Assembly (NCBI GenBank): GCA_937899715.1
Contig: CALCNX010000075.1
Location: 9,269-73,268, forward strand
Direction of reading: 5' to 3'
DNA from: an uncultured bacterium
GTDB taxonomy: Bacteria; Bacteroidota; Ignavibacteria; Kapaibacteriales; UBA4661
Length of the DNA: 64,000 nucleotides
Within the stretch, counting starts at the first letter, position 1, and every line of letters begins with the position of its first letter. This document shows positions 1,123 to 63,565 of the stretch, piece after piece. A program made the translations under genes and the position numbers. Under the pieces are notes generated by a model that saw nothing but the letters and a program-made list of their open reading frames with translations, searched no databases and was not told where the DNA came from.

Positions 1123-4100
1123 ATGAAACTGTTTGTTCTTCTTTTGGTTATCGCGCCGTGTCTTGCCCACGCGCAGCACGCGCCCGTGAACATTCCTCCT
1201 CCAAAGGCGGGAACGGTCTTGCGCAGCCTTGACCCCAAGAAGGACATTACGCATTACATCCACAGACTTTGGCAGGCGGAACAGGGGTTGCCGCAGAACT
1301 CTGCGCAGGCGCTCTGCCAGACGCGGGACGGATACTTGTGGATAGGCACGGAAGAAGGGTTAGTGCGCTTCGATGGTGCGCGGTTCACCGTTTTTGACAC
1401 CAAAAACACCCCCGGACTAAAAGCAAATGCTATTCAAGCACTGATAGAAGACCGCTCCGGTGCGCTCTGGATAGGCACAAGCGGTGGCGGCGTGAGCAGG
1501 TGGAAAGACGGGCATTGCACGGCATACACCACCGCAGAAGGCTTGTCGGGCGACTTTGTGAGTTCGCTCATGGAAGACCGCACGGGCGCTGAGTCCGGTG
1601 CGGGTGGTGGGGCAATCTGGGTTGGTACGCTGGGTGGGGGAGTGAGTTGTCTGAAGGATGGCAAGTTTACATCGCTGACCACCAAAAATGGTCTCTCGCA
1701 CAATCTTGTTTTTACGCTGCTCCAAGACCGCACGGGCGATGTTTGGATAGGCACAAATGGTGGTGGCGTGAACAGGCTGCATAACGGCGTTTTGACGGCA
1801 TACACCACGCAAAACGGTCTCTCGCACAATCTTGTTCGGGCGCTTCTGGAAGACCGCGACGGGGCGATTTGGATAGGGACGTTTGGCGGCGGGCTGAATC
1901 GGTTCAAAGACGGCAAGTTTACAGCGTTCACAACCAAAGATGGACTTTCGCACAATTTGGTTTGGTCGCTCCGAGAAGACCAGTTGGGAACGCTGTGGGT
2001 GGGTACATTCGGCGGCGGGCTGAATCGCTTACGCGATGGCGTTTTTTCTACGTTTTCCACTAAGAACGGGCTTTCGAGCGACCTCGTGCGTGCTATACTG
2101 GAAGACCGCGAAGGAACGCTCTGGGTGGGTACGGTGGGCGGGCTGAATTGCTTCAAAGACGGCATCTTTACAACGTTCTCCACGCATGATGGTTTGTCGC
2201 ATGATGTGGTCAGAACGCTTACGGAAAAAAGTGCGGGTGCGACAGCCAAAGGAAGCACGGAATTACATAAAGAAATGTGGATAGGCACGTTTGGCGGCGG
2301 CGTGAATCTTCTTCGGGACGGCAGGGCGCAGGCATGGACAGCCCGCACGGGGCTTTCGAGCGACATTATCTACACGCTCTTGGAAGACCGAAGCACAGGC
2401 GATAATGCGGGTGCGCTCTGGATAGGCACAAACGGTGGCGGTCTAGACCGACTTCAGAATGGCAACATTACCACTTACAACACGAAAAATGGTCTTGCAA
2501 ATGATGTTGTGTATGCTCTTGCGCAAGAATCTCGTTCGGGAGCGCTCTGGATAGCCACGAATGGGGGCGGTTTGAATCGTTTGGTATCAGGGAAATTTAC
2601 CAATTACACCACCAAAGACGGTTTGTCGAGTAATAACGTCCGAACGCTACTTCTGGAAAACCACAGCAAGGATGAGCAATCGGAAACGCTGTGGATAGGC
2701 ACAGTGGGCGGCGGGCTGAATCGCTTGAGTAATGGTAAATTCACCGTGTTCACGACTAAAGAAGGCTTGTCGCACAACAACGTGCGTTCGCTCTTCCAAG
2801 ACCGCGAGGGAACGTTGTGGATAGGCACGGTGGGCGGCGGGCTGAACAGATTCAAAGATGGCAAGTTTACGGCATTTACGACGGCAAATGGTTTGTTCGA
2901 CGACGTTGTGCATTGCATTGTGGAAGATGATTATGGCTATCTGTGGATGTCGTGCAACAAGGGTATTTTTCGTGTTCGCAAGGAGGACTTGAGCGCTTTT
3001 GCTGAGGGAAAATTGTCTAAATTTCCGTGTGAATCATTCGGTATTACCGATGGTATGCTGAGTGCGGAGTGCAATAGTGGTAATCCGGCGGGCTGGAAAG
3101 ACCGCCAAGGGCATTTGTGGTTCGCAACCATGGCGGGCGCTGTGACGGTCAATCCGGGCGCAGTGCTTTCACGCGCCAACAGTCTTGCACCGCCCGTCAT
3201 TATCGAAAGCATCATTGCCGATAGTGCTCGACTTGATGTTTCCACTCCGGCAGCAGCCCAGACGGGAGCAGAAAAGTTTGAATTTTATTATACCGCTACA
3301 AGCCTTTTTGCGCCGGAGCGTGTGAAATTCAAATACCTTTTGGAAGGCTACGACAAACAGTGGGTGGATGCTGGCACGAGGCGCACTGCATATTACACCA
3401 ATCTGCAACGCGGGCGAGACTACCGCTTTCGCGTCATCGCCTGCAACAGCGATGGCGTGTGGAACGAGACAGGTGCTATGGTGATGCTCTATCTTACGCC
3501 TCTTTTCTGGGAAACGTGGTGGTTCTTGACGCTTTGCGGGCTTGCACTTGTGTCATTGGGAGCAGGAGCATACCGTGTGCGGGTGCGGCACTTACACCAT
3601 CGGGCGGAGATGCTGGAGAAAATGGTGGAAGAGCGCACGGCGGAACTGCGCGAGAGCAATGAAGAAATCCAACAGCATCTGGAAGAAATAGACAAACAGG
3701 GGTACGAAATTGAGCTTTCTAATTTGGAATTGCGCGGAAAAAATCTGCAACTCGAAACGTTGCACAGAGAAAAAGATGAGTTTTTGGGTATCGTGGCGCA
3801 CGACTTGAAAAACCCTCTTGCAAGCATTACTCTTACGGCATCGCTGATTCGCACCTATCGCCAGCGTCATGGAGACGAATGGATAGACGAGCAGGCGAAT
3901 AAAATCGAGGCGATGACTGGGCGGATGACAAGCATCATTATGAATCTGCTGGATGTGAATGCACTGGAATCAGGGAACTATAATTTTCACATTGAGGATT
4001 TTGATATTGTGTCGGTGGTTGCTATGGTTGTGCGGGAATACCAAAGCAAATCTGCCACAAAAAAGATTAGCATTATTGCTGACTTGCCGCCGGAGAGCAG

Positions 4101-4455
4101 CGTGATAGCACACGCCGATAGCGCGATTGTACAAGGGATTTTGGATAACCTACTCTCGAACGCCGTTAAATACTCACCGCTTGGCAAACAAGTTTTTGTG
4201 CGTCTCGTCAGTGCCCACGCTGCAGTCCGCATAGAGGTTCAGGACGAAGGGCAAGGAATTTCGGAAGAAGACATGAAAAAATTATTTGGAAAATTTGCCC
4301 GCCTTTCGGCGCAACCAACAGGCGGCGAGCACAGTACGGGTCTGGGTTTAAGCATCGTCAAAAAAATGGTCGAAGCAATGCAAGGGCGTGTCTGGTGCGA
4401 ATCGGAAGCGGGCAAAGGAGCAACGTTTATCGTGGAATTGCCAAGAGTATTATAG
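1123..4455 (+). CDS. Sensor histidine kinase with a signal peptide, about 12 two-component-regulator propeller repeats (WIGT..GGL.RF), a Y_Y_Y domain, a TM helix, a coiled coil and the shared transmitter module. It has no REC or AraC domain.
   Basis: Repeats of the form LWIGTxGGGLNRxxxGKFTxxTTKDGLS, a Y_Y_Y region (FEFYYTATSL...KFKYLLEGYDKQWVD...RDYRFRVIACNSDGVWNE), a TM helix (WWFLTLCGLALVSLGAG), the H-box EFLGIVAHDLKNPL and the conserved C-terminus [52 protein letters not shown]. Confidence 0.9.
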   Translation: MKLFVLLLVIAPCLAHAQHAPVNIPPPKAGTVLRSLDPKKDITHYIHRLWQAEQGLPQNSAQALCQTRDGYLWIGTEEGLVRFDGARFTVFDTKNTPGLKANAIQALIEDRSGALWIGTSGGGVSRWKDGHCTAYTTAEGLSGDFVSSLMEDRTGAESGAGGGAIWVGTLGGGVSCLKDGKFTSLTTKNGLSHNLVFTLLQDRTGDVWIGTNGGGVNRLHNGVLTAYTTQNGLSHNLVRALLEDRDGAIWIGTFGGGLNRFKDGKFTAFTTKDGLSHNLVWSLREDQLGTLWVGTFGGGLNRLRDGVFSTFSTKNGLSSDLVRAILEDREGTLWVGTVGGLNCFKDGIFTTFSTHDGLSHDVVRTLTEKSAGATAKGSTELHKEMWIGTFGGGVNLLRDGRAQAWTARTGLSSDIIYTLLEDRSTGDNAGALWIGTNGGGLDRLQNGNITTYNTKNGLANDVVYALAQESRSGALWIATNGGGLNRLVSGKFTNYTTKDGLSSNNVRTLLLENHSKDEQSETLWIGTVGGGLNRLSNGKFTVFTTKEGLSHNNVRSLFQDREGTLWIGTVGGGLNRFKDGKFTAFTTANGLFDDVVHCIVEDDYGYLWMSCNKGIFRVRKEDLSAFAEGKLSKFPCESFGITDGMLSAECNSGNPAGWKDRQGHLWFATMAGAVTVNPGAVLSRANSLAPPVIIESIIADSARLDVSTPAAAQTGAEKFEFYYTATSLFAPERVKFKYLLEGYDKQWVDAGTRRTAYYTNLQRGRDYRFRVIACNSDGVWNETGAMVMLYLTPLFWETWWFLTLCGLALVSLGAGAYRVRVRHLHHRAEMLEKMVEERTAELRESNEEIQQHLEEIDKQGYEIELSNLELRGKNLQLETLHREKDEFLGIVAHDLKNPLASITLTASLIRTYRQRHGDEWIDEQANKIEAMTGRMTSIIMNLLDVNALESGNYNFHIEDFDIVSVVAMVVREYQSKSATKKISIIADLPPESSVIAHADSAIVQGILDNLLSNAVKYSPLGKQVFVRLVSAHAAVRIEVQDEGQGISEEDMKKLFGKFARLSAQPTGGEHSTGLGLSIVKKMVEAMQGRVWCESEAGKGATFIVELPRVL

Positions 4456-4777
4456 TTAGGGCTTTCGCAAATAGCAAGAACGAACATGATTTGGAGTGCG
4501 GAATTTTAATTCCGCAACCTTGGTACACGACAAAATTTCACAGATAGCTTGAGAACTGGCTTCGGTGGCACAGGCTGAGTGCCGCGCTCGCCTGTCTGTG
4601 TAGTCCTTTGAGCGCCGCGCTCAGAACACCGCTTCAAACCTCACAGACAAGTGAGCGCGGCGCTCAGTCTGTGCCACCGAGTACGATTTCTGTCGTGTAC
4701 TATGTTCCGCAACATATTTCTCACGTAACGGCGGAATTAAAATTCCGCACTCCTTATTTTTTGCGAAAGTCCTAATG
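4455..4777. repeat. Nested palindromic, MITE-like element of about 320 bp that begins at the stop codon of the upstream kinase gene. It has three concentric inverted repeats around a central palindrome.
   Basis: The outer inverted repeat is gttagggctttcgcaaa (4456-4472) paired with tttgcgaaagtcctaa (4762-4777). The middle one is ggagtgcggaattttaattccgc (4493-4515) paired with gcggaattaaaattccgcactcc (4731-4753). The inner one is an arm of about 40 bp, cttcggtggcacaggctgagtgccgcgctcgcctgtctgtg (4561-4601), paired with cacagacaagtgagcgcggcgctcagtctgtgccaccgag (4642-4681). The centre is the palindrome gagcgccgcgctc. A shorter relative lies at 47653..47720. Confidence 0.8.
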
Positions 4778-4949
4778 GTATCTCGTTGTTCACTACGTGT
4801 TGATGCCGTCCAGCAAGAATTTCTTCAATCTGAGAACGGTTGCATTTTTCGTGTGTGTCTATCAACATTTCATTGATATTTTACCTCGTGCCGTTGTATT
4901 TTACCGCATAACGCTATCCAAGGAAGTTTCATGCTAGTCGTTCTGCATT

Positions 4950-7900
4950 ATGCCATCCATTCGGTATTTCTTCCTCGCCCTTTTTTGCGGGTGCATCGCC
5001 GTCGCCCAAGAACGTCCGGTAAGCGTTCGCGGTTTAGACCCTTCAAAATCTATCGCCGAATACCGACATAGCATCTGGACGGCGGAAAACGGTCTTCCCC
5101 AAAACTCTGTTCAAACGCTTTGCCAAACGCGCAACGGCTACATCTGGATAGGCACACAAGAAGGTCTTGTGCGCTTCGACGGACTGAATTTTACTGTCTT
5201 CGACAAAACCAATGCTCCCGCTATAAGCGACAAATTTGTCAACGCGCTTCTGGAAACCTCTGATGGCACTCTGTGGGGAGGAGGCGCAAGAGGGTGCCTT
5301 TTTTCTCTGCAAAACGGAGTCTTTACGCGCCAAGCGATTGACCAACAAGCCGACGTTCGTGCATTGGCGGAATGGCACGGAAGAGTCTGGATTGGCACAA
5401 ATAGAGGGCTGTACTCTTGGCAGCGAAACGCGGCAACGTTCCGCCGTCTGAGTGTGATCGACGGTTTGCCGAGCGACGCTATTTTGTCGCTTGCCGCCGA
5501 CACGACGGCAGGTATTCTCTGGGTGGGAACGCAGGAAGGACTCTGCGCGGTGCGGATAGCTGCGTCGAATAATGACGGCGTGGGCGACACTTTTCGGACG
5601 CACTCTTTCCGTGTGGGGGATGGGTTGGTCAACGCAGCCATTCGTGCGCTGCTTTGCGATAGAGAGGGAACGCTCTGGATAGGCTCTAACGGGGGGCTAC
5701 AACGTGCGGTATGGAGCGACGGTGCGTTTCGCATAGTGGAAACCTATACTGAGCGCTCCGGTTTATCGGATAACGTTATCACTGCACTACACGAGGACAT
5801 GGAGCGAACCCTATGGATTGGTACGGCAACGCAAGGCTTAATGCGTTGCGCAGCTTCTCGCCGGATATTTGAACGCTTTACTATCGCCAACGGGCTTGGC
5901 AGCAACGATGTGGACGCAATTATACAGGACCGCGAGGGAATGCTCTGGATTGGCAGCGCCAATGGCGGCGGTCTCAATCGCCTCGCCAATGCTTCGTTTA
6001 TCGGCTACACAAAAAGCAACGGACTTGTTGGCGAGTTTGCTTGGACGTTGCTGCAAAGCCGCGACGGTTCAATGTATTTTAACACCAGTAATGCCGGTGT
6101 GGCACGCTTGAAGTCCGGCGCGTTTAGCTTTTTCACCAAAGAGCGCAACGGTTTACTTAGCAATGCGGGCAGAGCTATGATGGAAGACGCGGAGGGCGTT
6201 CTCTGGGTGGGTTCAGCCGAAAGCGGCGTTTCATGCGTCAAAAACGGGCGCGTTGTCAAAACGTACACAACGGCGACCGGACTGCTTGGCGATAATATCC
6301 GCGTTTTGTTTGAAGATAGTAAACGGCGCGTCTGGATTGGCTCGTTCAACAGCGGTCTCCAATGTTTAGAACATGGAAAATTTACATCGTGGACAGAAAA
6401 AAATGGCTTGTGTGGCAACAAACCGCGTACAGTGTTGGAGTCGTCCGACGGCACGATATGGATAGGCACATCCGGTGGTCTCAACGCTCTGCGCCCGGGA
6501 GCGTCGAAGTTGGAGCAGTACACCACTGCGCAGGGCTTAACTATGAATAGCGTTTTGTCGCTGCACGAAGACGAAAGCGGGGCACTCTGGCTTGGCATGA
6601 ACAGAGGCGGCTTGCATCGCTACAAAAACGGGAAATTTACCCATTGCAGCATAGAACACGGCTTGTTCGATGAAAATGTGTACAGCATTCTCGACGACGG
6701 TTTGGGCAATTTCTGGATGAGTTGCAATTTTGGCGTGTTTCGCGTGAGCAAAGCCGAACTGAACGCATTTATGGACGGCAGAGCGGCACATATCGTTTGC
6801 ACGGTCTTCGGGAAAGCCGACGGAATGCCGGTAGCCGAGTGCAACGGTGGGAGTACGCCGTCGGCATGGCGCTCCGGCGACGGGCGGTTATGGTTCGCTA
6901 ACGCAGTGGGCGCGGTTGTTGTGGATCCGCGTAAAATCTATAAAAATCCTGTTCCGCCGCAGGTGATTCTGGAGGAGATGCGTGTCGATGGGAAACCTTC
7001 CACATCGGCGACCATTCTCGCAACTGAAACCGAAAAACTTGAATTTCAATACACTGCCACGTGCCTTGCAGCCGCCGAGCGTGTGAAATTTAAGTATATG
7101 CTTGAAGGCTACGATAAGGATTGGGTGGAAGCCGGAAACCGCCGTACCGCCTATTACACGAATCTTCAACGAGGGCGCGACTACCGTTTCCGAGTTATCG
7201 CTTGCAACAACGACGGCGTTTGGAACGATACAGGGGCGTGGATCAATTTTTCAATTACGCCTTTTTGGTGGGAAATGTGGCAATTTTACGGACTCTGCGT
7301 GATGTTTGTCGGTACCACCGCGTATCAAGGGTTTCGCTGGCGGACACGGCGCTTGCGGGCAAGGGCGCGGGAATTAGAACGACTTGTCGCCAAACGCACG
7401 AAAGAAGTGCAAATGCAAGCTGCCGATATTGAAACGGCAAACACCGCTTTGCACGAAAAAAATATCATGTTGGAGCGACAGCAACAGATTTTAGAGGAAC
7501 AGGCACGGGAAATTGAAATTGCCAATTCAGCACTTCAGGAAAAAAATATCACGCTGGAAATGCTGAACCAAGAAAAGAATGAGTTTTTGGGCATAGCCGC
7601 ACATGATTTGAAAAACCCTCTTCAGCATATTATCATGGTTTCGGAAAAAATAGAGCGATATTATGACCGCATGAAGCGCGATGATATTGTTCACCAAGCC
7701 AAGACGATTGGTGCGGTGGCGCATCGTATGAACGAAATTATCGTGAATCTTCTTGATATTAACGCCATTGAGCGAGGCGGCGTGAGACTCGCGCCTAAAG
7801 AAGTTGACGTAGAGCCGCTGGTGCGCCGCGTAACCGAAGACTATGCGCACACGGCGCAAGAAAAAAACATAGCGATTTTTGTTGTCGGCATGGGAACAGA

Positions 7901-16618: not shown

Positions 16619-16744
16619 TGATTATAGGCAGGTGGATACAATCATTTTCGACTTGCCCGTCGTGCGGAATAGTATCGGCAATATTCAGGGTTGTATGGAC
16701 TCAGGAATTATTGTAAAAAATTTTTGCTACTAGATTTTTCCACA

Positions 16745-17413
16745 ATGACTACTCAACCGACAATAAAAGCACTCATAGCTGATGACCATGAAATAGCGCG
16801 GTTTGCGTTTCTCAAGTGGTTAGAGGAAGAGGCACAGACTGGGGTGCTTGATGTTAGCATCATTGGTATTGTGTCCACAGGACAACAGGCATTAGACCGT
16901 GTTTTGCTGTCGTCCAATCATGGTGAAGCCATTACTTTCTTGATACTCGACCTTGATATGCCGGATATGACTGGTCTGGAAGTCATCAAAACGCTTCGCG
17001 CAAAGGCATGGAAGCATCCGATATTGGTCATTTCCGGTTCGTATCTGGCAACAGCACGGGATGTGCTTGCGGTCGGAGCAAATGGGTTTATCTCCAAAGA
17101 AGAGGGGCAATCGGTGTTCGTTGAAGCGGTGCATTTTTTGGCGAGCAATCCCGATAGAACATGGCTCAGTCCCAAAACGCACCGCCAACTTCTTCACACT
17201 GAAAATCTTCTCAAAAAAGCTGACCTGACAACCGCTGAACAAGGTGTACTCAGGCTTGCCAAGTTCTCGAACAAAGAAATCGCCGATAAACTTGGTATTG
17301 CCGAAAGTACCGTCAAAAAGCATTTTTGGAGTATCTTCCAAAAGCTCGGTATTGCCTCGCGCTATGATGCGATTGCCTTTGCGATTGAAGCGGGCTTGAT
17401 TGTTGGGCGGTAG
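16745..17413 (+). CDS. Response regulator of the NarL/FixJ (LuxR-type helix-turn-helix) family with an unusual insertion of about 35 aa in the receiver domain.
   Basis: REC motifs (KALIADDHEIARFA and the acceptor D in LILDLDMPDMTG) and a C-terminal LuxR helix-turn-helix (LTTAEQGVLRLAKFSNKEIADKLGIAESTVKKHFWSIFQKLGI). Confidence 0.85.
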   Translation: MTTQPTIKALIADDHEIARFAFLKWLEEEAQTGVLDVSIIGIVSTGQQALDRVLLSSNHGEAITFLILDLDMPDMTGLEVIKTLRAKAWKHPILVISGSYLATARDVLAVGANGFISKEEGQSVFVEAVHFLASNPDRTWLSPKTHRQLLHTENLLKKADLTTAEQGVLRLAKFSNKEIADKLGIAESTVKKHFWSIFQKLGIASRYDAIAFAIEAGLIVGR

Positions 17414-29432: not shown

Positions 29433-32339
29433 ATGAAATCGTTCTCACTTTCTACAAAAGTAGCAGCGCTCTACGTTATTGTCGGTAGCCTTTGGATTAT
29501 TATTTCCGACGTGCTTCTTAACTATATATTGCATCTCGGCTTGGTTGCTGGTGTACCACAGACGCTGAAAGGGATTGTGTTTATTGCTGTTACCGGAGCA
29601 TTACTTTTTCTGATAATACGCCAAATGGATGCTTCTCGTAGCAGGGTTGAGCAAGAGGCAGAAATGCTCGCATCGGCTGCCAAAGGTAGTCTTGATATTA
29701 TTGCTCTCCACGACCACGATGGAAAAATTTTATTCATCACGCCATCGGTTGCTAATACTCTCGGTTACGAGCCATCCGATTTTATCAATAAACATCCGAG
29801 CATTCTTCATCATCCCGATGACATTGAACGCACACGTACCGCAATCAGGGGTGTGAAAGAAGGTAATGAGCAACAATTTACATATCGTGCCAAGCATAAA
29901 AATGGACACTACATTTGGCTGGAAAGTAAGCTCAAACCAATTCTTGACCCTGCAACCCAGAAGGTCGTTCGATTTGAGGCATTTACCCGCGATGTCTCAG
30001 AGCGTGAGCAAGCATATAGAGCGTTACAACAGAGTGAGGCGCAAGCTCGAAACATCATCGACGCATCGCCTGTACCATCTGCCCTAAATGACAAGAATCA
30101 GCGAATTATATATCTGAATCCAGCCTTTATTGCAATGTTCGGTTACACACTGGACGACATTCCAACCTTGGCAGAATGGTGGGTAAAAGCCTACCCCGAC
30201 GAGGTGTATCGGCAGTGGGTGCAAGAAACATGGCAGCTACATCTGGAAAAAGCACAGCGCGAAGGAACAACCTTTGAGCCGATGGAGCTGAGTATTTGCC
30301 GTAAAGATGGCGGAAAGCGCACTGCGCTTGTGAGCGCGGCTCCGCTCGGGGACGAATTTCAAGACGTTCATCTTGTGATTTTGTACGATATTACCGAGCG
30401 AAAAGCCATGGAAAGGGCGTTGCAGGAAAGCGAGGAGCGATACCGTAATCTGTTCAATGTGATGGAAGAAGGGATTGCTATCAACGAAGCAGTATTCGAT
30501 GAGAATGGTGATGTGGTAGATTACATCATCGTTGATGCCAATCCTGCTTTTGAGCGTCATTCGCCTTATACCATAGCAGAAGCACTTGGTCAAAGGGCAA
30601 CGAGTCTCTATAAGATGGAGTCAAAATTTATACGTGATTGGTGGCGGCAGCATATTACCTTGGCAAGTGTTCCCCGCACAGAGTATTATCACGAGCCGAG
30701 CGACCGATGGTTTGATATTGTAACCACCTTACCCGAAAACGGGCGCTTTGCTACTATTTTTATCAATATCACCGACCGTAAGCGTGCCGAAGAGCAATCA
30801 AGAATGCTCGCGTTGGTGGCAAGTAAAACAAGCAATGCTGTCATTATTACTGATGCTACCGGATACACAACATGGGTAAATAACGGTTTTGTCAATGTTT
30901 CCGGTTTTGCGTCCGAAGAAATCATCGGAAAGAAACCCGGCGACCTATTGCAAGGAAAACGTACCGACTCTGAAACTGTCCGGCAGATGAGCCGTGCTAT
31001 CAGTGCCGGCGAATCTTTTGAAGTCGAAGTGGTGAATTATTCTAAAGACGGTACTCCGTATTGGATACATATCAAAGCAGACCCATTCTTTGATGAATCC
31101 GGGATACTTCAGGGGTTTATTGCTATTGAGCAAGATATTACCCACGAAAAGGAGCAGACCGAAGCGCTTATGCAGAGCTATGTAGAAACGCAAAATTTCC
31201 GCACAGCGCTGGAAACAAGCGCCTTGGTGTCAATAACAGATATTCGCGGTACAATTATCTACGCAAACAAGGCTTTTGCGGCGGTGTCGAAATATACCGT
31301 TGAAGAACTTCTGGGAAAAAATCATAGACTAATCAATTCCGGATTCCATACTCAAGAATTCTTTCGTGAGATGTGGATAACTATTTCTTCCGGCGAACCA
31401 TGGCGTGGCGAAGTCCGCAATCAAGCAAAAGACGGTTCGTACTACTGGGTGGAAACTGCCATTAGTCCTATGCTTGACCAGCACGGACAAATTTATCAGT
31501 ATGTATCGGTGCGGTATGAAATCACCGAGCGGAAACGGATTGAAGAAGAGTTACAAACGTGGTCGCAAGAACTGGAGAAGCGAGTAGAGGAGCGGACTCA
31601 TGAACTGCAAGAATTGAACCATGAGAAAGATGAGATTCTTGGTATTGCGGCGCATGACCTCAAGAATCCGCTTGCCGGTATTCTTTCAGGCGCGGAAATC
31701 TTGGAGCGCTACTACTCCGACGATGACAAAATAAAGTATTTTGCGACCATGATTATTAGTGCTAGTGACCAGATGCTAGGTATTATCAAAAATCTGCTCG
31801 AAATCAATGTCTTAGAAAACGGGAAGTTCGTCATGAATCTTACCCCGATAAGCCTAGAAGTGGTTGTGCCGATAATAGAAGATTATGAGCAACGAGCTAA
31901 AACCAAAGATATTCATGTCCTCTACGAGCCTCCGCCGGGCACGCTCGCTCCCGTTATCATGGCAGATGAACAAGTACTTTGGCGAATAGTGGACAATATT
32001 ATTTCCAACGCACTGAAGTATTCTCCGCACGGAAAAAATATCTACGTCCGCGTTCTAAGTCGTACCGATGAAAATGGCGTAGAATATGGTCGTATGGAGG
32101 TACAAGACGAAGGATCGGGCATCAGCGCTGAAGACAAGAAAAAACTGTTTGGTAAGTTTGCGCGGTTGTCGGCAATACCGACGGGTGGGGAGAGTTCCAC
32201 GGGGCTGGGACTGAGCATTGTGAAAAAGCTGACTGAAGGCATGAACGGAAAGGTATGGTGCGAGTCAGAATTAGGGCAAGGCGCAACATTTATTGTGGAG
32301 TTCCCGATTGCGCACGATGAAAGCTGTTTAGACTCATAA
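29433..32339 (+). CDS. Multi-PAS sensor histidine kinase (two N-terminal TM helices, about four PAS/PAC domains and the shared transmitter module).
   Basis: TM helices (VAALYVIVGSLWIIISDVLL; IVFIAVTGALLFLII) and PAS/PAC signatures (DGKILFITPSVANTLGYEPSDFINKHPSILHHPDD; NKAFAAVSKYTVEELLGKNHRLINSGFH...DGSYYWVETAISP). The H-box is EILGIAAHDLKNPL and the C-terminus is GKFARLSAIPTGGESSTGLGLSIVKKLTEGMNGKVWCESELGQGATFIVEFP. Confidence 0.85.
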   Translation: MKSFSLSTKVAALYVIVGSLWIIISDVLLNYILHLGLVAGVPQTLKGIVFIAVTGALLFLIIRQMDASRSRVEQEAEMLASAAKGSLDIIALHDHDGKILFITPSVANTLGYEPSDFINKHPSILHHPDDIERTRTAIRGVKEGNEQQFTYRAKHKNGHYIWLESKLKPILDPATQKVVRFEAFTRDVSEREQAYRALQQSEAQARNIIDASPVPSALNDKNQRIIYLNPAFIAMFGYTLDDIPTLAEWWVKAYPDEVYRQWVQETWQLHLEKAQREGTTFEPMELSICRKDGGKRTALVSAAPLGDEFQDVHLVILYDITERKAMERALQESEERYRNLFNVMEEGIAINEAVFDENGDVVDYIIVDANPAFERHSPYTIAEALGQRATSLYKMESKFIRDWWRQHITLASVPRTEYYHEPSDRWFDIVTTLPENGRFATIFINITDRKRAEEQSRMLALVASKTSNAVIITDATGYTTWVNNGFVNVSGFASEEIIGKKPGDLLQGKRTDSETVRQMSRAISAGESFEVEVVNYSKDGTPYWIHIKADPFFDESGILQGFIAIEQDITHEKEQTEALMQSYVETQNFRTALETSALVSITDIRGTIIYANKAFAAVSKYTVEELLGKNHRLINSGFHTQEFFREMWITISSGEPWRGEVRNQAKDGSYYWVETAISPMLDQHGQIYQYVSVRYEITERKRIEEELQTWSQELEKRVEERTHELQELNHEKDEILGIAAHDLKNPLAGILSGAEILERYYSDDDKIKYFATMIISASDQMLGIIKNLLEINVLENGKFVMNLTPISLEVVVPIIEDYEQRAKTKDIHVLYEPPPGTLAPVIMADEQVLWRIVDNIISNALKYSPHGKNIYVRVLSRTDENGVEYGRMEVQDEGSGISAEDKKKLFGKFARLSAIPTGGESSTGLGLSIVKKLTEGMNGKVWCESELGQGATFIVEFPIAHDESCLDS

Positions 32340-32483
32340 GAAAGTGTCTAAAAATACGCCTTAAAACCCTCACCCAACCCTCTCCCAGAGGTAGAGGGCT
32401 TCAGAATACGGCTTTGTTTCTTGCTCCTTCTCCCTCTGGGAGAAGGTTGGGATGAGGGGATACACAATTTTCAGACACTTTCT
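32340..32483. repeat. Extended imperfect palindrome of about 145 bp lying immediately after the stop codon of the upstream multi-PAS kinase gene. It is a terminator-like or MITE-like element of a different family from 4455..4777.
   Basis: Outer arms gaaagtgtctaaaaat (32340-32355) and aattttcagacactttc (32467-32483). Inner arms ccctcacccaaccctctcccagagg (32368-32392) and cctctgggagaaggttgggatgagggg (32432-32458). Confidence 0.75.
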
Positions 32484-37072: not shown

Positions 37073-37148
37073 GGAGGTAAAGAATGAATTGTAGGAAAAC
37101 ACTATTAAGTGCTGCAAAGATAGGCGGGCTGGTCTTATAAAGCTATTC

Positions 37149-37184
37149 GTACATCTACGGATTTGGCAAAAACCGTAGATGTAC
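37149..37184. repeat. Perfect 12-bp-stem hairpin (gtacatctacgg / ccgtagatgtac) with a 12-nt loop, in the divergent intergenic region between the TIG-repeat gene and the MCP gene.
   Basis: Read directly from the sequence: gtacatctacgg atttggcaaaaa ccgtagatgtac. Confidence 0.7.
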
Positions 37185-37320
37185 TGATAGCAAAAGTTAG
37201 GGCGGGGGATGATAGTAGCATTAAGGCAGAAACAACAGTGAAAGCTATGAAGGGCAGGGTTTGGTGCGAAAGTGAAGAGGGCAAAGGGGCAACGTTTATT
37301 GTGGAATTGTGCAGGTATAG
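37163..37320 (+). pseudogene. Remnant of the last ~25 codons (...[22 protein letters not shown]) of the shared transmitter module, with no upstream kinase.
   Basis: 37241-37310 translates to [24 protein letters not shown], matching the conserved kinase C-terminus. Upstream of it the translation degenerates ([11 protein letters not shown] compared with SIVKKMVEAM). Confidence 0.55.
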
Positions 37321-37567
37321 TCTCACTGTTTGCCAACGCAACCCCCAAAGCGGCATCGTTTTTCTGTGTCGTTTGGTGGAAGTTTTTTGTACATTCGTGA
37401 CGGAAGAAAAAATGCCATCGCTTCTATTTCACTACATTGGGGAGCCGACGTTATTCGTTGCTTCATGGTATTGTATGCGGAGCGTTCATGCACTGTTCGT
37501 GCGTATATTGTCCAAAACACACCACAAACGATTTTTGCCACTTTTGCCCATCTATTTGGAACACACT

Positions 37568-39337
37568 ATGAATGCCTTGATATTGTCGTTTATTCCCGAA
37601 TCACTGCGCCGCGATGCCGACGAATTTCGCCGCGCCCGCTTAATCATCTCGGTTTCGTGGACGCTCTTTTTTGCTTCCCTCGCGCTCACCATCCAATCTG
37701 TCGTGATGAACATTTCATGGATTTTCGTGATGATATGGGTTCTTGGAGCAGCATTGTCGCTGTATAATCCGTTTGTCCTCCGCAATACTGCATCTCTTCG
37801 TCTGACAGGAAATATGATTCTAGCGGTGTCCGCACTAACTATTTTATTACACTGCTATATTCTGAACGACGGCTTGCGACTTGGGCTTTCACAGTATTTT
37901 TTTGTTGCTATTCCGCTTATGGCGGCATTATTCAATGGTGCCCGACAAGCAATCGCATGGACGGCAATATCATTCGTGCTGGTGTTGATACTTTTTGCTG
38001 CAAATATGCTTGGTGTGGCGTTCCCGCCCGTTTCCTTTCCACCTGAGTTGATGATGGTGCAGCGTCTTATCGGAACAACGGCTACGCTGCTGCTGATTTC
38101 GCTCCTATCGGTGCAGTCCATTCGCGCCAAGGACAATGCACTTAATTTGGCTGCGGAAATTCGTGCTGAAGCGGAGCGTAAAGCAGAGGAAGATTATCAA
38201 AAACTAAAAGAAATGAAGGCAAGCTCCGAAGCCCGTGCAGCCGATGATCTTCGCCGCTCAGAAGAGCAAAAGCAATACTTGACTCACAGCGTCGAAATGA
38301 TTTTGCAGCACATTCACCATATAGCTGGCGGAGATTTGACCGTGCGTGTGCCTGTGGAGTCGAGCGATGATATTGGTAAACTTGCTACCACACTCAACCG
38401 AACTATCGAAACCATCGAGCAGATGCTTGTTCGTGTAGCCGAGAGCGCTGACCGTACCATGTCTGCTGTTGCTGCTATTTCCGACACCACCGAAGAGCTT
38501 GCGGTTTCGTCCAATCGGCAGTCCACACAGGCGGGTCATGTTGCCAGCGCAGTGGAGGAAATGTCTGCCACGATTGAGGACTCAACCCAGCAAACATCGC
38601 TTGCAGCGCATGAAGCCGCACTTGCCAACGAAGATGCTCTGAGCGGCAACGCCACAATGCAAACAATGATGTCGAATGTGCGCAGCATCTCTGGCGTGGT
38701 CATTTCAACCGCAGAGCGCATTGAAGCTCTTGGCAAATCAAGCGAACAAATTGGAGAGATTGTGGAAGTGATTGACGAGATTGCCGACCAGACAAATCTA
38801 CTGGCGCTCAATGCAGCCATCGAAGCTGCCCGTGCCGGTGATCAGGGGCGTGGGTTTGCGGTAGTGGCAGACGAAGTGCGCAAACTCGCCGAGCGCACAC
38901 AAAAAGCAACGAAAGAAATCTCGGCTCGAATAAAAATTATTCAGAACGACACCGCCGATGCGGTCGGTTCTATGGGCGAGGGTACACGTCTGGTCAAGGA
39001 AGGCGAACAAGCAGTGAGCCGCACAGTGGAGGCGTTTGCGGCAATTCTGCAACGCACCGAGCGTGTGTCCGATGTGATGTCGCAGTTGGCGGGTGCTGCC
39101 GAAGAGCAAGCCGCGACGAGCAATTCAATGGCGCAAAGCGTGACCGATATTACGGGTGTGATTGAAGATGCCTCGCGTAGCGTCAGCAATATCGCCGACA
39201 GCACCGCAGGACTTCAACTGCAAGCCAATGAATTACGTCAGCTCATTGGGCAATTCCGCATTCAGCGAACGGGAAGTGCTTCCAAATCTTCGCAGCCCTT
39301 GCAAGGTGTGCCTAATAATAAGCGCCTGCTTGCCTAA
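37568..39337 (+). CDS. Methyl-accepting chemotaxis protein (polytopic membrane N-terminus, HAMP domain, MCP signalling domain).
   Basis: Multi-TM N-terminus, a HAMP-like segment ([30 protein letters not shown]) and the highly conserved MCP hairpin tip [36 protein letters not shown]. The start is chosen at MNALILSF; the ORF is open from 37163 through the kinase remnant. Confidence 0.8.
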
Positions 39338-45252: not shown

Positions 45253-47616
45253 ATGTTTTCTTCACAACGCTCTCCTTATACTACCTTCGCATTCTTTATC
45301 CTCTCCGGTTTGTTGTTGGTATTCTCATCACTGCCTTCTTTTGCTCATCTATTTTTCCCGTCCGATTCACGAGATTCTTCTGCCAATAGTATTATCACTC
45401 ATGATTCTCTTGGTGTTATAGAATTTGGTATTGACGGGAAGCCCTCCACACGCCATGTTACTGCTAAAACACAATACTGGATAGACACTGCGCAAACCAT
45501 GACGATTCAGCGCCTGATGCAATCGTCCAGCAATACACGAAGTTTTCATAAAGCTGCTACATCCTCAATACTTTTGGGAAACGGGCATCGTGTAGTATGG
45601 ATACAATTCGTAGTGCAGAGACTTCCTATGCAGGATGAATTGAAGCGACTCGCCGACAGTATCGGGAGTGATAGTATTAAAAATCAGGGTATCAGAGATA
45701 GTAGTGTGAGTGCTATAAATGTAGCTCAAGCAAGACTTGGCGAGGCTCTTCGCCCGTGGGTTCTACTCTTGGAGAATAGGTCTGCCGATAGTGTAGAGTT
45801 CTATATGACTCGTGGGGATTCAATTCTTTATTCAGATACAGTCGGCTATTCCGTGGCATATTCTCGTTGGCATATACCTGCAATGAAGATAGCTTTTCCG
45901 CTTCCTGTGGGTACTGGCGAGAGAATTGTATGCTACGTGCGTATGCGCATGAATGGAGTAATGTATTACGGAGTTTCTTTACAGCCCGAAAGGCAGTTTG
46001 CCGAAAGAACGTTCAACTTTAAGTTGCCACTTTTTTTATTTTATGGTGTTACGCTTTTCGCCGCTATCTTTAGTCTGCTCTCGTGGATTCTCACGCGCAG
46101 CAGATATTATGGGCTGTACGCATTTTATATCGTGTGTCTGGCGTTGAGCATCAGCATTGATGCAGGACATTTTTATCAGGTCTTCGAGGTTTCCATGCCT
46201 CATCTGAACAATCGGCTTTACATTCTCTCGTGGCTGGCAAGTATGGCAATGGGGGTGTTTTTCGTATGGGAATTTGTGCGGGAGCAGCATAGTATCGCCA
46301 TACCAAAGATATGGGAGTGGCTGGCATACTTGTTTTGGGCGTGTTGTCTGGTGGCATTGGTCGCCGAATTTGTTGATATGCGAGGGGTCACGCTCAACGT
46401 TCTGTACTATTCATATTTAGCGCTGGCAGTGCCGACCACACTTGGCATGAGTTTTTCCGCATGGCGTGCCGGCTACCGTCCGGCGCTGTATGTGTTCGTG
46501 GCACGGGCAATCGTTGAGTTTGGGATTGCCGCAAATTCGCTTGCTGCACTGGGTGTGCTGTCCTATTCTTCCATTTGGATAAGCCAAATTTCACTTCTTG
46601 TTCCGGCAGTAGAAATGATGCTCATGGGGCTGGCGCTGGCAGACCGCATCACCGTTCTTCAGCGTCTAAAGCAAGAAGCGGAGCGCAGAGCACTTCAGGG
46701 CGAACTCTACCGCGTCCAAAATGAAGAGCTTTCGGCTGCGAATGAAGAAATCAGCCGCCAGCAAAGCGAAATCATGCAGCAAGCAATGGAACTACAAGAG
46801 ATGAACACACAGGTAACGCTGCTTAATGATGAATTGCAACAACAGAACGCTGAACTTGCCGAGGCGAACCGCGAAAAAAGCGAGATTCTGAACATTGTGG
46901 CGCACGACCTGAAAAACCCCATCGGCAGTGTGCGCGGCATGGCAGAGTTGATTGAAACAGGGTTCATCGGCGATACGGAAAAAACGGCAAGCGCAGCAAA
47001 GCAGATTATCGGCACATCCGAACGGATGCTGGATTTGGTAAAGAAGCTCCTCGACATCAATATGCTGGAATCCGGCGCTTTTCAGATGGATTTTTATGCG
47101 TTCGATATTATTCCCCTTCTGGATATGCTGGTGGAACAGTACACCGCTCCTGCTGCCGCAAAGCAGATTGCGATTCGCTGTGAATATCAGATTTCTCGCG
47201 GTATCATTCTTGCCAATGAGCAAGCCGTTATGCAGATTCTGGACAATATCGTTTCTAATGCAGTGAAATACTCGCCACACGGGAAAAACATAGTTGTAAG
47301 GATAAAGGCTGCGGGCGAAACGGTGGAAGATGTAACAGAGAATGTTGTCCCTTCTCCTTCGTCATTTGTGCGCATCGAAGTACAGGACGAGGGACCCGGA
47401 CTGAGCGAAGACGATAAAGCCAAGCTCTTCGGCAAATTTGTACGCCTTTCCGCGCAGCCTACGGGCGGCGAACATTCTACAGGGCTGGGACTTAGCATCG
47501 TCAAAAGAATGGTCGAGGCGATGAAAGGAGAGGTGTGGTGCGAATCTGAGCGAGGAGAAGGGGCAACGTTTATTGTACAATTACCAATTTCTGTGTCGGA
47601 AGCGTCATCTTCGTGA
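45253..47616 (+). CDS. Sensor histidine kinase of the 7TMR-DISM type (extracellular 7TMR-DISMED2-like domain plus 7 TM helices) with the shared transmitter module.
   Basis: Signal peptide, an extracellular domain of about 230 aa, seven hydrophobic helices (LPLFLFYGVTLFAAIFSLLSWIL ... ISLLVPAVEMMLMGLALA), a coiled coil, the H-box EILNIVAHDLKNPI and the C-terminus GKFVRLSAQPTGGEHSTGLGLSIVKRMVEAMKGEVWCESERGEGATFIVQLP. Confidence 0.85.
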   Translation: MFSSQRSPYTTFAFFILSGLLLVFSSLPSFAHLFFPSDSRDSSANSIITHDSLGVIEFGIDGKPSTRHVTAKTQYWIDTAQTMTIQRLMQSSSNTRSFHKAATSSILLGNGHRVVWIQFVVQRLPMQDELKRLADSIGSDSIKNQGIRDSSVSAINVAQARLGEALRPWVLLLENRSADSVEFYMTRGDSILYSDTVGYSVAYSRWHIPAMKIAFPLPVGTGERIVCYVRMRMNGVMYYGVSLQPERQFAERTFNFKLPLFLFYGVTLFAAIFSLLSWILTRSRYYGLYAFYIVCLALSISIDAGHFYQVFEVSMPHLNNRLYILSWLASMAMGVFFVWEFVREQHSIAIPKIWEWLAYLFWACCLVALVAEFVDMRGVTLNVLYYSYLALAVPTTLGMSFSAWRAGYRPALYVFVARAIVEFGIAANSLAALGVLSYSSIWISQISLLVPAVEMMLMGLALADRITVLQRLKQEAERRALQGELYRVQNEELSAANEEISRQQSEIMQQAMELQEMNTQVTLLNDELQQQNAELAEANREKSEILNIVAHDLKNPIGSVRGMAELIETGFIGDTEKTASAAKQIIGTSERMLDLVKKLLDINMLESGAFQMDFYAFDIIPLLDMLVEQYTAPAAAKQIAIRCEYQISRGIILANEQAVMQILDNIVSNAVKYSPHGKNIVVRIKAAGETVEDVTENVVPSPSSFVRIEVQDEGPGLSEDDKAKLFGKFVRLSAQPTGGEHSTGLGLSIVKRMVEAMKGEVWCESERGEGATFIVQLPISVSEASSS

Positions 47617-47652
47617 AATATCGTTAGGGCTTGGCGGCGTTCATCGAAGGGT

Positions 47653-47720
47653 GGAGTGCGGAATTTATTCCGCAACAAAATAAGATAGAATCTTGGTAGG
47701 CGGAATAAATTCCGCACTCC
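47653..47720. repeat. Hairpin repeat (ggagtgcggaatttattccgc ... gcggaataaattccgcactcc) of the same family as the middle inverted repeat of 4455..4777. It sits 37 nt downstream of a kinase stop codon, the same offset as the other copy.
   Basis: Read directly from the sequence. The shared upstream motif gttagggctt lies at 47624-47633 (compare 4456-4465). Confidence 0.8.
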
Positions 47721-47857
47721 CAATCTGTTTTTTTGCAAAAACCGTTGCTTTGTTTCAATGTCGACCCGATGTGTTTCTTAGAGATTCAATGTAACTTTTT
47801 CTTGCTGGCGTTGTTCTCTGTCCTTTCATGTTTTTTTTGCACTATTCACACCACACT

Positions 47858-48871: not shown

Positions 48872-48955
48872 AATATCATTCCTGAGAAGAAAAAAAGAAA
48901 AGCCCGCAAGAACGTTAGTTTCTTGCGGGCTTTTGCTGTTGGTCTGTGCTACGCT

Positions 48956-63533: not shown

Positions 63534-63565
63534 TGTCAAAAAAATTTTGAGTGTTCGCAAAGGAG

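Follow-up and report, generated by a model that had tools for sequence, protein, structure and literature searches.

Nested inverted repeats downstream of a histidine kinase gene, probably a cluster of REP dimers with GGAG and GT[AG]G tags

REPINs are non-autonomous mobile DNA elements whose copying depends, in trans, on a HUH tyrosine transposase (RAYT) encoded by a single gene copy. The REP/REPIN-RAYT systems described as E. coli BIMEs, Pseudomonas REPINs and the REPtron (PMC3116915, PMC2817692, PMC3479197) consist of a short hairpin with a tag 5' of the stem foot, form inverted dimers able to fold as one long hairpin, and occur in many, mostly intergenic copies with a bias to gene 3' ends, together with one Y1/HUH transposase gene that has copies of the repeat on its flanks. 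In E. coli TnpA-REP it is A3 and G4 of the tag that specify cleavage (PMC3479197). Di Nocera et al. 2013 described GTAG- and CGTC-tagged stem-loop families that form HH/TT dimers, both homo- and heterodimers, with spacers of 20-100 bp and with DNA inserted between the dimer partners; REP dimers also lie within long lineage-specific palindromes, as in Anabaena variabilis GTAG-15 and Halothiobacillus neapolitanus CGTC-1 (PMC3733652).

We analysed two palindromic sites in a stretch of 64,000 nucleotides (the window). All of the dimer and palindrome features listed for the GTAG and CGTC families were also seen here, as were the hairpin, tag and dimer arrangement of the REPIN systems; their copy number, intergenic location, 3'-end bias and repeat-flanked transposase gene were seen in related genomes. 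One repeat family of site 1 (layer D) is a plain GT[AG]G-tagged REP of the kind in PMC3733652. The tag of another (layer B), GGAG(T), falls outside both super-families of that study and differs from the REP tags GTAG and GTGG at position 2, with A3 and G4 kept. The layer B family was found in Kapaibacterium/Ignavibacteria, Chloroflexota, Verrucomicrobiota and others, in contrast to the Gammaproteobacteria of the known REPs, and unlike the known systems an identical 21-nt unit is found across phyla. Site 1 also differs from the families of PMC3733652 in bringing together up to five concentric layers and at least three repeat families at one locus. We consider it likely that at site 1 several REPs are nested within one another and paired as inverted dimers (REPINs). 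Small selfish palindromes of this kind are already known from bacteria.

Architecture of the two sites

Site 1 is a palindrome of four to five layers and about 320 bp (window positions 4456-4775) in the gap between two kinase genes (4456-4949). Its outer arm directly abuts the TAG stop codon of a gene encoding a Reg_prop/Y_Y_Y histidine kinase (Table 1), where an earlier note on this DNA had placed the start of a hairpin. That note described three concentric inverted repeats around a central palindrome. These are present, but layer C was missed, and so was the composite make-up, with several repeat families in place of a single element. The outer arms (layer A, 4456-4478/4753-4775) are 23 nt long and 83% complementary, with a single mismatch between the cores TTAGGGCTTTCGCAAA and TTTGCGAAAGTCCTAA. 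The middle arms (layer B, 4493-4515/4731-4753) are also 23 nt and 100% complementary. The layer C arms (4523-4535/4688-4700) are 13 nt (92%) and the inner arms (layer D, 4562-4600/4642-4680) 39 nt (90%). The palindrome TGAGCGCSGCGCTCA (layer E) is present three times, the first copy having two mismatches. Folded as RNA, site 1 gave -174 kcal/mol versus -92.5 +/- 5 kcal/mol in shuffles (z = -16); the left unit of layer B, folded as DNA, gave -8.6 kcal/mol (z = -5.2). Site 1 is base-for-base the same in ENA metagenome assemblies ERZ650283 and ERZ27248705. Across the three assemblies (the window included) there was no empty or filled-site variant, and the contigs recovered via the flanking proteins had identical sequence and no empty site.

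Site 2, which the earlier note had picked out as a 68-bp relative sharing the middle arms and an upstream motif, has both: its 21-nt arms are 100% complementary across a 26-nt spacer, and GTTAGGGCTT begins at 47623. Its DNA fold gave -27.2 kcal/mol (z = -9.3). The GGAGTGCGG arm begins 38 nt after the stop codon at site 1 and 37 nt after it at site 2, distances that had been reported as the same. The measurements stand, but the equality is partly coincidence because GTTAGGGCTT overlaps the stop codon at site 1 and lies 7 nt past it at site 2. All four exact occurrences of GGAGTGCGGAAT in the window fall within sites 1 and 2; with up to two mismatches there were 14 matches, a number reached by no shuffle. 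If the inner 186 nt are taken out of site 1, a dimer of 66 nt is restored, which compares with the 68 nt of site 2.

Table 1 Features of sites 1 and 2, with loci of related arrangements
Feature	Position or loci	Strand	Description
Stop codon, site 1	4453..4455	+	TAG of histidine kinase gene 1123-4455; the element starts at the next base
Layer A, left outer arm	4456..4471	.	TTAGGGCTTTCGCAAA; family consensus TAGGACTTTCGCAAA; lineage-specific palindrome
Layer B, left REP unit	4493..4515	+	GGAG(T) tag and hairpin GCGGAAT-TTTA-ATTCCGC
Direct repeat, copy 1	4510..4518	+	TTCCGCAAC; end of left REP unit plus 3 nt; candidate target duplication
Inner insert	4519..4704	.	186-nt palindromic insert, layers C, D and E, between the 9-nt direct repeats
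Layer C, left arm	4523..4535	.	GTACACGACAAAA; terminal inverted repeat of inner insert
REP remnant	4539..4545	+	CACAGAT, from another GTAG-type REP hairpin; whole in metagenome locus L105
Layer D, left REP unit	4564..4600	+	Second family; GGTGG tag (GT[AG]G type) and CACAGGC...GTCTGTG, E in loop
Layer E, copy 1	4576..4590	.	GC-rich palindrome TGAGTGCCGCGCTCG; loop of left D hairpin
Layer E, copy 2	4609..4623	.	Free-standing central palindrome TGAGCGCCGCGCTCA
Layer D, right REP unit	4642..4678	-	CACAGAC AAG [E] GTCTGTG CCACC; inverted relative to left unit, tag outside
Layer E, copy 3	4652..4666	.	TGAGCGCGGCGCTCA; loop of right D hairpin
Layer C, right arm	4688..4700	.	TTCTGTCGTGTAC
Direct repeat, copy 2	4705..4713	+	TTCCGCAAC
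Layer B, right REP unit	4731..4753	-	100% complementary to left unit; homodimer, tags outside
T-rich tract and layer A, right outer arm	4754..4775	.	TTATTTTTT, then TTTGCGAAAGTCCTAA (4760-4775)
Stop codon, site 2	47614-47616		TGA of 7TMR-DISM kinase gene
Outer-arm remnant, site 2	47623..47632	+	GTTAGGGCTT; degenerate remnant of left outer arm A, 7 nt past TGA stop
REP dimer, site 2	47653..47720	.	Simple 68-bp dimer, REPIN-like; units 47653-47673 (+) and 47700-47720 (-)
T-run and outer arm, site 2	47728..47740	+	TTTTTTTGCAAAA; T-run and degenerate right outer arm; compared with 4757-4769 of site 1
Outer-arm payloads	L037, L089, L108		GGAG-REP dimers
	L095		GGAG-REP monomer
	L105		GTAG-REP dimer
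	L029		Another payload
RAYT genes flanked by GGAG(T)-tagged repeats	L005, L130, L119/120, L123-129, L118, L121, L122		REPtron arrangement, relatives

The middle arms of site 1 and the whole of site 2 are a tag-outside REP dimer in which each unit has a conserved 5' GGAG(T) tag and a short hairpin. In the 39-nt inner arms it is a second REP family that forms the dimer; its tag is of the canonical GT[AG]G type, and its hairpin loops carry a GC-rich palindrome. The inner-arm pattern gave 13 matches in metagenomes, of which 10 were GC-rich coding coincidences and L105, L108 and L117 were true relatives. The GC palindrome is present in the loop of some GT[AG]G-CACAGAC..GTCTGTG hairpins and missing from others; the form that lacks it (CACAGACAAGAATGTCTGTG) is found at L108, L117 and L065. 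The tag of this family is GTGG in the window and GTAG in L105 and L117, and where the window has the remnant CACAGATAGCTTGAGAACTGGCTTCGGTGGCACAG, L105 reads CACAGATTAAGAGTGTCTGTGCTACGGCATGAGAACTGGTTTCGGCGGCACAG. The palindrome formed by the outer arms is lineage-specific and at other places surrounds dimers of either REP family: in six other loci, varied payloads of about 83 nt lie between the two arms. No other copies of layer C or of the free-standing central GC palindrome were present in the searched sequence.

Inverted repeats of 10 nt mark the ends of the inner 186-bp segment, and the 9-nt direct repeat TTCCGCAAC brackets it. Target duplications are not expected from single-strand HUH transposition. 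As the 9-nt repeat takes in part of a REP unit, a decayed third unit is an alternative to a target duplication. The indirect evidence for mobility consists of this repeat and of the D hairpins that occur with and without the GC palindrome.

The GGAG-tagged family and its transposase

Given the unit sequence of layer B, contigs at one genome per species were searched with the pattern GGAGTGCGGAATT-N0-6-ATTCCGC. At least 99 loci were found in public genomes, versus about 8 expected by chance (an estimate: 596 Gb x 2 strands x 7 gap lengths / 4^20); lone matches inside real genes were about as many as this expectation. The window's own genome was absent from the scanned genome loci; the family counts are those of other genomes. 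With many further copies, the REP-like identity considered in the earlier note held up: the REP family of the middle arms is multi-copy, associated with a RAYT and mostly intergenic in many genomes, and it flanks the RAYT gene on both sides in related genomes.

The loci, mostly intergenic dimers, were found in Kapaibacterium/Ignavibacteria, Chloroflexota, Verrucomicrobiota, Saprospiraceae and others, and the closest to the window among the matches listed was Kapaibacterium locus L029 (77% identity over 192 nt). Single MAGs had from 4 to at least 25 loci (at least 25 in a Caldilineaceae MAG, 5-8 in several others), L074 and L079 had 3-5 dimers per 8 kb, and the window has 2 dimers in its 64 kb. 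The unit is 21-23 nt long and consists of GGAGT plus a 6-8-bp stem (written out, GGAGT-GCGGAATTTATTCCGC). Tag-outside dimers numbered 57 among the matches listed, both window sites and 55 others. Most dimers among these matches were heterodimers in which the local palindrome of every unit was still perfect, the stem variants being GCGGAAT, GCAGACT, GCAGAAT, GCGAATT and CCAGACT; partner units chosen by the ACTCC tag alone showed the same pattern of variant stems and intact palindromes. Spacers ranged from 2 to 215 nt and were unconserved. Minimum-energy folding of the heterodimers preferred one long imperfect hairpin and gave no support for a strict three-way junction. The argument for local hairpins is therefore the compensatory changes inside each unit and not the folding energies.

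Intergenic sites among the matches listed comprised 50 co-directional, 22 convergent and 8 divergent gaps (background 270/63/71), often with a distance of 3-40 nt between element and stop codon. When the 1786 ORFs of the 99 loci listed were clustered all against all, no neighbour gene family recurred. A scan of viral_contigs for a phage origin of the cross-phylum spread gave no matches to the core pattern, and a literature search for the motif itself returned nothing relevant (one unrelated plant-virus match).

The enzyme associated with the family was found in a Kapaibacterium MAG. Positions 2510-3046 of L005 encode a 179-residue protein that scores 104 bits on NCBIfam NF047646, the 'REP-associated tyrosine transposase' model (cut-off 80), and also passes Pfam Y1_Tnp. 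In its alignment with E. coli TnpA-REP (PDB 4ER8; E = 1.2e-11) the HUH motif lines up, as do the catalytic Tyr, Asn and His (Y115, N119 and H123). GGAG dimers lie on either side of this gene, 13 nt before the start codon and 22 nt after the stop codon. Five further homologue loci in other taxa, with homologues of 55-93% identity in Anaerolineae, Desulfonema magnum and other MAGs, all had flanking GGAGT-tagged hairpins, with different stems. The 64-kb window has no RAYT gene and there was no Y1 transposase among its scanned ORFs; presence of the transposase and the repeat copy number in the window's genome are extrapolated from these relatives. The RAYT gene of the Kapaibacterium lineage would be expected there with GGAG dimers on its flanks, an RND pump gene (ACR_tran) on one side and an OEP gene on the other. 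The Y1 transposase of L092 (Caldilineaceae) was rejected as cognate enzyme: it is an IS200-type TnpA (NF033573) whose flanks carry other repeats and no GGAG units.

Kinase neighbourhood and alternative explanations

The earlier note suggested that the element targets or insulates co-oriented kinase paralogs. This did not survive comparison: the relatives adjoin unrelated genes, and no neighbour family recurs at the 99 loci listed. Kinases are most of the window's genes, and as at least 17 of them are histidine kinases, almost any intergenic element here follows a kinase. Hence, the position of sites 1 and 2 after kinase genes is coincidental. Two other identities were also discarded. Integron attC sites read 5'-RYYYAAC ... 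GTTRRRY-3' and here the order is reversed (5'-GTTAGGG ... GTCCTAA-3'), with 1100-residue kinases rather than cassettes as neighbours; a CRISPR or tandem array is contradicted by irregular spacing and inverted units.

We think it unlikely that site 1 is a conventional MITE, that is, an IS-mobilised deletion derivative of a DDE-type IS with terminal inverted repeats and a target-site duplication. Its outer arms do act like 15-16-nt terminal inverted repeats around about 83 nt at several loci, and the inner 186-bp segment, with its own inverted and direct repeats, may by itself be read in this way. However, no consistent target duplication was found at the outer arms (window, L037, L089 and L105), no IS with matching ends was present in about 800 kb of loci listed (arm termini GTACACGACA and TAGGACTTTCGCAAA), and the associated enzyme found was a RAYT. 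Moreover, the conserved part is internal (tag plus hairpin) with lineage-variable outer arms, the opposite of a MITE. Quite improbable, too, is an elaborate Rho-independent terminator or mRNA 3'-stabiliser evolved in place for the kinase genes rather than mobile DNA. Both copies begin within 40 nt of the stop codon of a co-oriented gene, are very stable and have T-runs on the gene strand (CACTCC-TTATTTTTTG at site 1, a 7-T run 7 nt past the stem at site 2), and the GGAG family favours 3' ends and convergent gaps. Intrinsic terminators resemble this arrangement in having a stable stem and then a T-run at a gene 3' end, but the 320-nt five-layer stem is 10-20 times longer than needed and is built of dispersed repeat families, an excess over a simple terminator that the earlier note had recognised; TTATTTTTT comes directly after the stem at site 1. 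Members of the family frequently have no T-run or lie just upstream of start codons, the 21-23-nt unit occurs at its many loci across phyla beside unrelated genes and RAYT genes, and the genome uses ordinary short terminators (e.g., 48898-48934).

The earlier note also raised a structured 3' UTR RNA. We consider it very unlikely that a non-coding RNA, be it a 3' UTR element or an sRNA, has the regulation of the kinase genes as its dedicated task. The fold is strongly non-random and both sites lie within the 3' UTR of sensor kinases, but the conserved tag and hairpins show mirror symmetry on the two strands, the spacers are not conserved, the genes beside the relatives are unrelated and in either orientation, and most genes of the window are kinase genes. 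The window had no match in Rfam 15 at the gathering threshold; the permissive threshold gave one chance-level miRNA match (E = 0.15, 22 bits versus a gathering score of 84). We give almost no weight to an assembly artefact such as a fold-back read or chimeric palindrome. Assemblers are known to fail at long perfect palindromes, and contig L104 breaks inside the outer arm. Nevertheless, the whole element is identical in the window and two independent assemblies from different samples, which argues against an artefact, and the arm imperfections are typical of biology (G:T differences, heterologous layers) and each layer has relatives elsewhere.

A nested REP cluster could also act on transcripts. 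As both sites lie 3' of a gene of the same orientation and have a T-run behind them on that strand, it is plausible that both serve as terminator or as 3'-exonuclease barrier and mRNA stabiliser for the kinase transcripts. Termination can be a secondary effect of a REP, and such a predicted role would be a side effect of the repeat rather than kinase-specific.

Proposed origin and wider context

In the history that we propose for site 1, the starting point would be a dimer of the site 2 type, about 66 bp long and enclosed by the outer palindrome. The 186-bp palindromic insert, probably a REP dimer in which the loop insertions were already present, would then have entered between the dimer partners and left the 9-nt direct repeat. 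Propagation is predicted to proceed as in E. coli TnpA-REP: the RAYT would bind the REP hairpin in single-stranded DNA, and the tag bases A3 and G4, which GGAG shares with GTAG, would direct cleavage to a CT dinucleotide. Hairpins extruded from palindromes already in place may be favoured landing sites, which would give concentric layers.

A broader proposal we put forward tentatively. One GGAG-reading RAYT clade may have moved the near-identical 21-nt unit among at least 4-5 phyla, and its REPINs, the GTAG family and the GC palindrome may preferentially insert into each other's loops to build multi-layer palindromes. Kapaibacterium/Ignavibacteria, Chloroflexota, Verrucomicrobiota, Saprospiraceae and Planctomycetota are the groups named for the transfer. 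If the transfer is real, REPIN-RAYT systems are not inherited only vertically, a question on which the identical unit in several phyla bears; if the loop-insertion reading is right, extruded hairpins are the insertion target of these systems. For annotation, the very large 3'-end hairpins of Kapaibacterium-like genomes would be explained as stacked REP/REPIN repeats, which guards against over-reading them as kinase-specific regulators or novel RNAs. For REP biology, the family provides a well-supported RAYT-REP pairing beyond Proteobacteria with a variant guide tag, and GGAG (T2 changed, A3 and G4 kept) is a natural test of the TnpA-REP recognition positions. Site 1 is also a clear case of repeats nested in the loops of other repeats.

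Patchy RAYT distributions resembling horizontal transfer are already known (PMC6006769). TnpA-Y1 subclass 2.4 of Quentin et al. 2018, scattered over many phyla in a manner consistent with horizontal transfer (PMC6006769), has the signature YIxNNP, which the Y-motif Y-L-L-N-N-P of the present enzyme resembles; the HUH motif is NHYH here versus NH[IFV]H in subclass 2.4. The same study described 'double foot' REPs with the consensus tag GT[AG]G. These are matched, with GGAG as tag, by single hairpins tagged on both sides (GGAGTGCGGAAT..ATTCCGCACTCC) at L014, L082 and L095.

Architecture of the two elements

By the tests available, the nested palindrome that follows a Reg_prop/Y_Y_Y histidine kinase gene (site 1) and its short relative after a 7TMR-DISM kinase gene (site 2) are a cluster of REPs (short palindromic repeats) and REPINs (inverted REP dimers) of putative mobility, and they are primarily repeat DNA, whether selfish or domesticated. 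Repeat finding on positions 4300-4950 and on the whole window confirmed, as the earlier note had claimed, the concentric inverted repeats of site 1, the outer arm of which begins at the base directly after the TAG stop codon; the three inverted repeats reported in the note are present, together with an additional layer (C) that it had overlooked. The 68-bp relative was likewise as described. The GC-rich palindrome TGAGCGCSGCGCTCA (layer E) has three copies in site 1, and the very stable hairpin proposed was borne out by an RNA fold of -174 kcal/mol versus -92.5 +/- 5 in shuffled sequences (z = -16). As site 1 is identical in two further independent metagenome assemblies, an assembly artefact was ruled out.

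Positions of the palindromic features in the window
Feature	Position	Description
Layer A, outer arms	4456-4478/4753-4775	23 nt, 83% complementary
Layer B, middle arms	4493-4515/4731-4753	23 nt, 100% complementary
Layer C, terminal arms of inner palindrome	4523-4535/4688-4700	13 nt, 92% complementary
Layer D, inner arms	4562-4600/4642-4680	39 nt, 90% complementary
Direct repeat TTCCGCAAC	4510-4518, 4705-4713	186-nt inner palindrome between copies
Truncated GT[AG]G-family unit	4539-4545	remnant of another unit
Site 2	47653-47720	perfect 21-nt arms, 26-nt spacer
Third nested palindrome	32339-32483	starts exactly at stop codon of PAS histidine kinase gene 29433-32339; outer arms AGAAAGTGTCTAAAAAT / ATTTTCAGACACTTTCT
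Hairpin	37142-37191	23-nt arms, 4-nt loop; overlaps predicted start of MCP gene 37163-39337
Hairpin	48898-48934	plain, bidirectional terminator-like, between convergent genes; AAAAGCCCGCAAGAA..TTCTTGCGGGCTTTT

The GGAG repeats and their probable transposase

The middle arm is a small palindrome with GGAGT in front (GGAGT-GCGGAAT-TTTA-ATTCCGC). Scanning one genome per species with the pattern GGAGTGCGGAATT-N0-6-ATTCCGC gave at least 99 loci, where we estimate that chance would give about 8. Among the matches listed, lone occurrences inside large genes are roughly as many as this chance number and the other matches are a genuine multi-copy family, in agreement with the REP-like element that the earlier note had offered as one option. 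Hosts among the matches listed are Candidatus Kapaibacterium, Ignavibacteria, Caldilineaceae, other Chloroflexota, Verrucomicrobiota, Saprospiraceae and others, with at least 25 loci in one Caldilineaceae MAG. The units are mostly inverted dimers with the tag outside (at least 57 found), and most of those listed are heterodimers of unlike stems (GCGGAAT, GCAGACT, GCAGAAT, GCGAATT, CCAGACT). Every unit is nevertheless fully self-complementary, also where the partner was picked by its ACTCC tag alone, a pattern that marks the individual hairpin as the unit of selection or copying.

The pattern also occurs within long hairpins of heptamer repeats (GCGGAAT, GCGGAGT, ACGGAAT and so on; for example GAATGCGGAGTGCGGAGTGCGGAATT...ATTCCGCACTCCACATTCCGTACTCCGC) in Acidobacteria, Brocadiales, Saprospiraceae and a proteobacterial MAG (L003 743-767, L010, L021, L022, L028, L077). 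Some adjoin tRNA genes, and they may represent elements of another kind, having only the heptamer in common with GGAG units.

A probe search over all six-frame segments of the loci found one ORF resembling a RAYT (REP-associated tyrosine transposase), at 2510-3046 of a Kapaibacterium MAG locus (L005); the window has no RAYT gene. The ORF scores 104 bits against NCBIfam NF047646 'REP-associated tyrosine transposase' (cut-off 80), passes Pfam Y1_Tnp, aligns with E. coli TnpA-REP (PDB 4ER8) at E = 1.2e-11, and keeps the HUH motif and catalytic Y115, N119 and H123, the roles of which in TnpA-REP are described (PMC3479197). GGAG-tagged dimers lie 13 nt 5' of its start codon and 22 nt 3' of its stop codon, and the whole is a classic REPtron (a RAYT flanked by its REPs). 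At E <= 1e-10 it has 496 homologues, some annotated as REP-associated tyrosine transposase. At five more RAYT loci, from other genomes, the flanking DNA has GGAGT-tagged hairpins in every case, with stems varying by genome: GGAGT-CCAAAGC.. in Anaerolineae (L118), GGAGT-GCAAAAAT.. in tandem arrays in Desulfonema magnum (L121), GGAGT-GCAAAAC.. in another MAG (L122), and such hairpins also at three Kapaibacterium-lineage orthologues (L119/L120, L123-129, L130). The tag thus goes with the RAYT clade and the stem drifts, as would be expected were the tag used for guiding or recognition. GGAG differs from canonical GTAG at position 2 alone; because it keeps A3 and G4, which pair with the CT cleavage site in E. 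coli (PMC3479197), we predict that the same cleavage rule holds. In the available text of two surveys the GGAG tag is absent, the tags being GTAG and CGTC only (PMC3733652) or the consensus GT[AG]G, with 'GGAG' nowhere (PMC6006769); the patchy, HGT-like distribution of RAYTs and 'double foot' REPs are already known from the latter.

Kapaibacterium-lineage RAYT genes (L005 1-4466; L119, L123-L130) occupy a conserved slot between ACR_tran (RND efflux pump) and OEP (outer-membrane efflux) genes, kept over orthologues of 70-93% identity, each with GGAG-tagged REPs on either side, the stems of which are lineage-specific; this agrees with a single-copy 'domesticated' transposase inherited vertically. 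In D. magnum (L121 800-2750; CP061800.1, ~7.645 Mb) the RAYT homologue lies within large tandem arrays, in which a 42-nt unit (GGAGT-GCAAAAATTGCATTTTTGC and a spacer) is repeated directly about 13 times and a 37-nt unit then follows in about 9 copies of opposite orientation; the annotated 237-aa ORF begins within the array, and a similar block lies downstream. Caldilineaceae contig CAZUNT010000042.1 (L092 4051-4800) encodes an IS200-type TnpA (140 aa, NF033573) with GACTGAAGCGATTCTGTTGGCA on both sides in direct orientation and small palindromes GAGGCTGAAGC...GCTTCAGCCTC in the flanks, a system distinct from the GGAG REPs of that genome.

Layering and proposed history of site 1

Scanning metagenomes for the inner-arm sequence gave three true relatives (L105, L108, L117), which show the 39-nt arms to be units of a second family of REPs, GT[AG]G-CACAGAC-loop-GTCTGTG; Kapaibacterium, Ignavibacteria and Verrucomicrobia loci have this family too. 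In the relatives some hairpins are 'empty' (CACAGACAAGAATGTCTGTG) and others hold the GC palindrome in the loop, as the window copies do. The other ten scan matches were rejected as GC-rich coding coincidences.

The outer arms (consensus TAGGACTTTCGCAAA) are a Kapaibacterium-lineage palindrome that usually encloses about 83 nt; elsewhere its content is a GGAG dimer in L037, L089 and L108, a single GGAG unit in L095, a dimer of the GTAG family in L105 and another payload in L029. The window elements resemble in this the GTAG/CGTC repeats, which form dimers in long lineage-specific palindromes, heterodimers, and dimers with DNA inserted between the partners (PMC3733652). In L029/L030/L037 (Kapaibacterium RDXM01) a dispersed repeat, ATACCGTTTCGATTGTAAAATGAATAGTTTCAATTCTCCGAAACAAGGCAG..., lies between GGAG dimer partners and directly outside the outer arm, which is further evidence that repeats of this lineage pile up inside or beside one another.

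The 186-nt inner palindrome has inverted copies of GTACACGACA as termini. Removal of this insert with one TTCCGCAAC copy restores a 66-nt dimer closely resembling site 2. The best reading of site 1 is therefore a REPIN of the site-2 type within the outer palindrome, into which the nested palindrome would have inserted later. The direct repeat could instead be a decayed REP remnant.

Genomic context and possible effects

Among the loci listed, GGAG elements are intergenic, enriched in convergent gaps (22/80 sites versus 63/404 background gaps), scarcer in divergent ones (8/80 versus 71/404) and often 3-40 nt from a stop codon. The REPs of E. coli are known to act as terminators or exonuclease barriers. 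Such an effect is plausible for sites 1 and 2 also, given the preference of the family for 3' ends and the T-run that comes after each site on the upstream gene's strand.

The suggestion that the elements target or insulate kinase paralogs was not borne out: at least 17 window genes encode histidine kinases, an unrelated nested palindrome (32339-32483) also follows one, and no gene family recurs beside GGAG elements among the loci listed. The kinase association is thus coincidental. That third palindrome encloses an inverted dimer of CCCAAC-CCTTCTCC-CAGAG-GGAGAAGG, each unit a local hairpin whose CCCAA tag faces outward; its outer arm has a 19-nt match in Kapaibacterium locus L001 and its inner unit a 23-nt match in L025. 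It probably represents a third family of REP-like repeats that shares the plan of a dimer inside an outer palindrome.

The kinase genes form an unusually long co-oriented run (55-34560, + strand; also 45253-47616) with diverse sensor domains (Reg_prop/Y_Y_Y, TPR, GAF, PAS, 7TMR-DISM, and a hybrid with a receiver domain); the response regulators seen alongside number only two, at 16691-17413 (LuxR-type) and 62670-63593 (LytTR).
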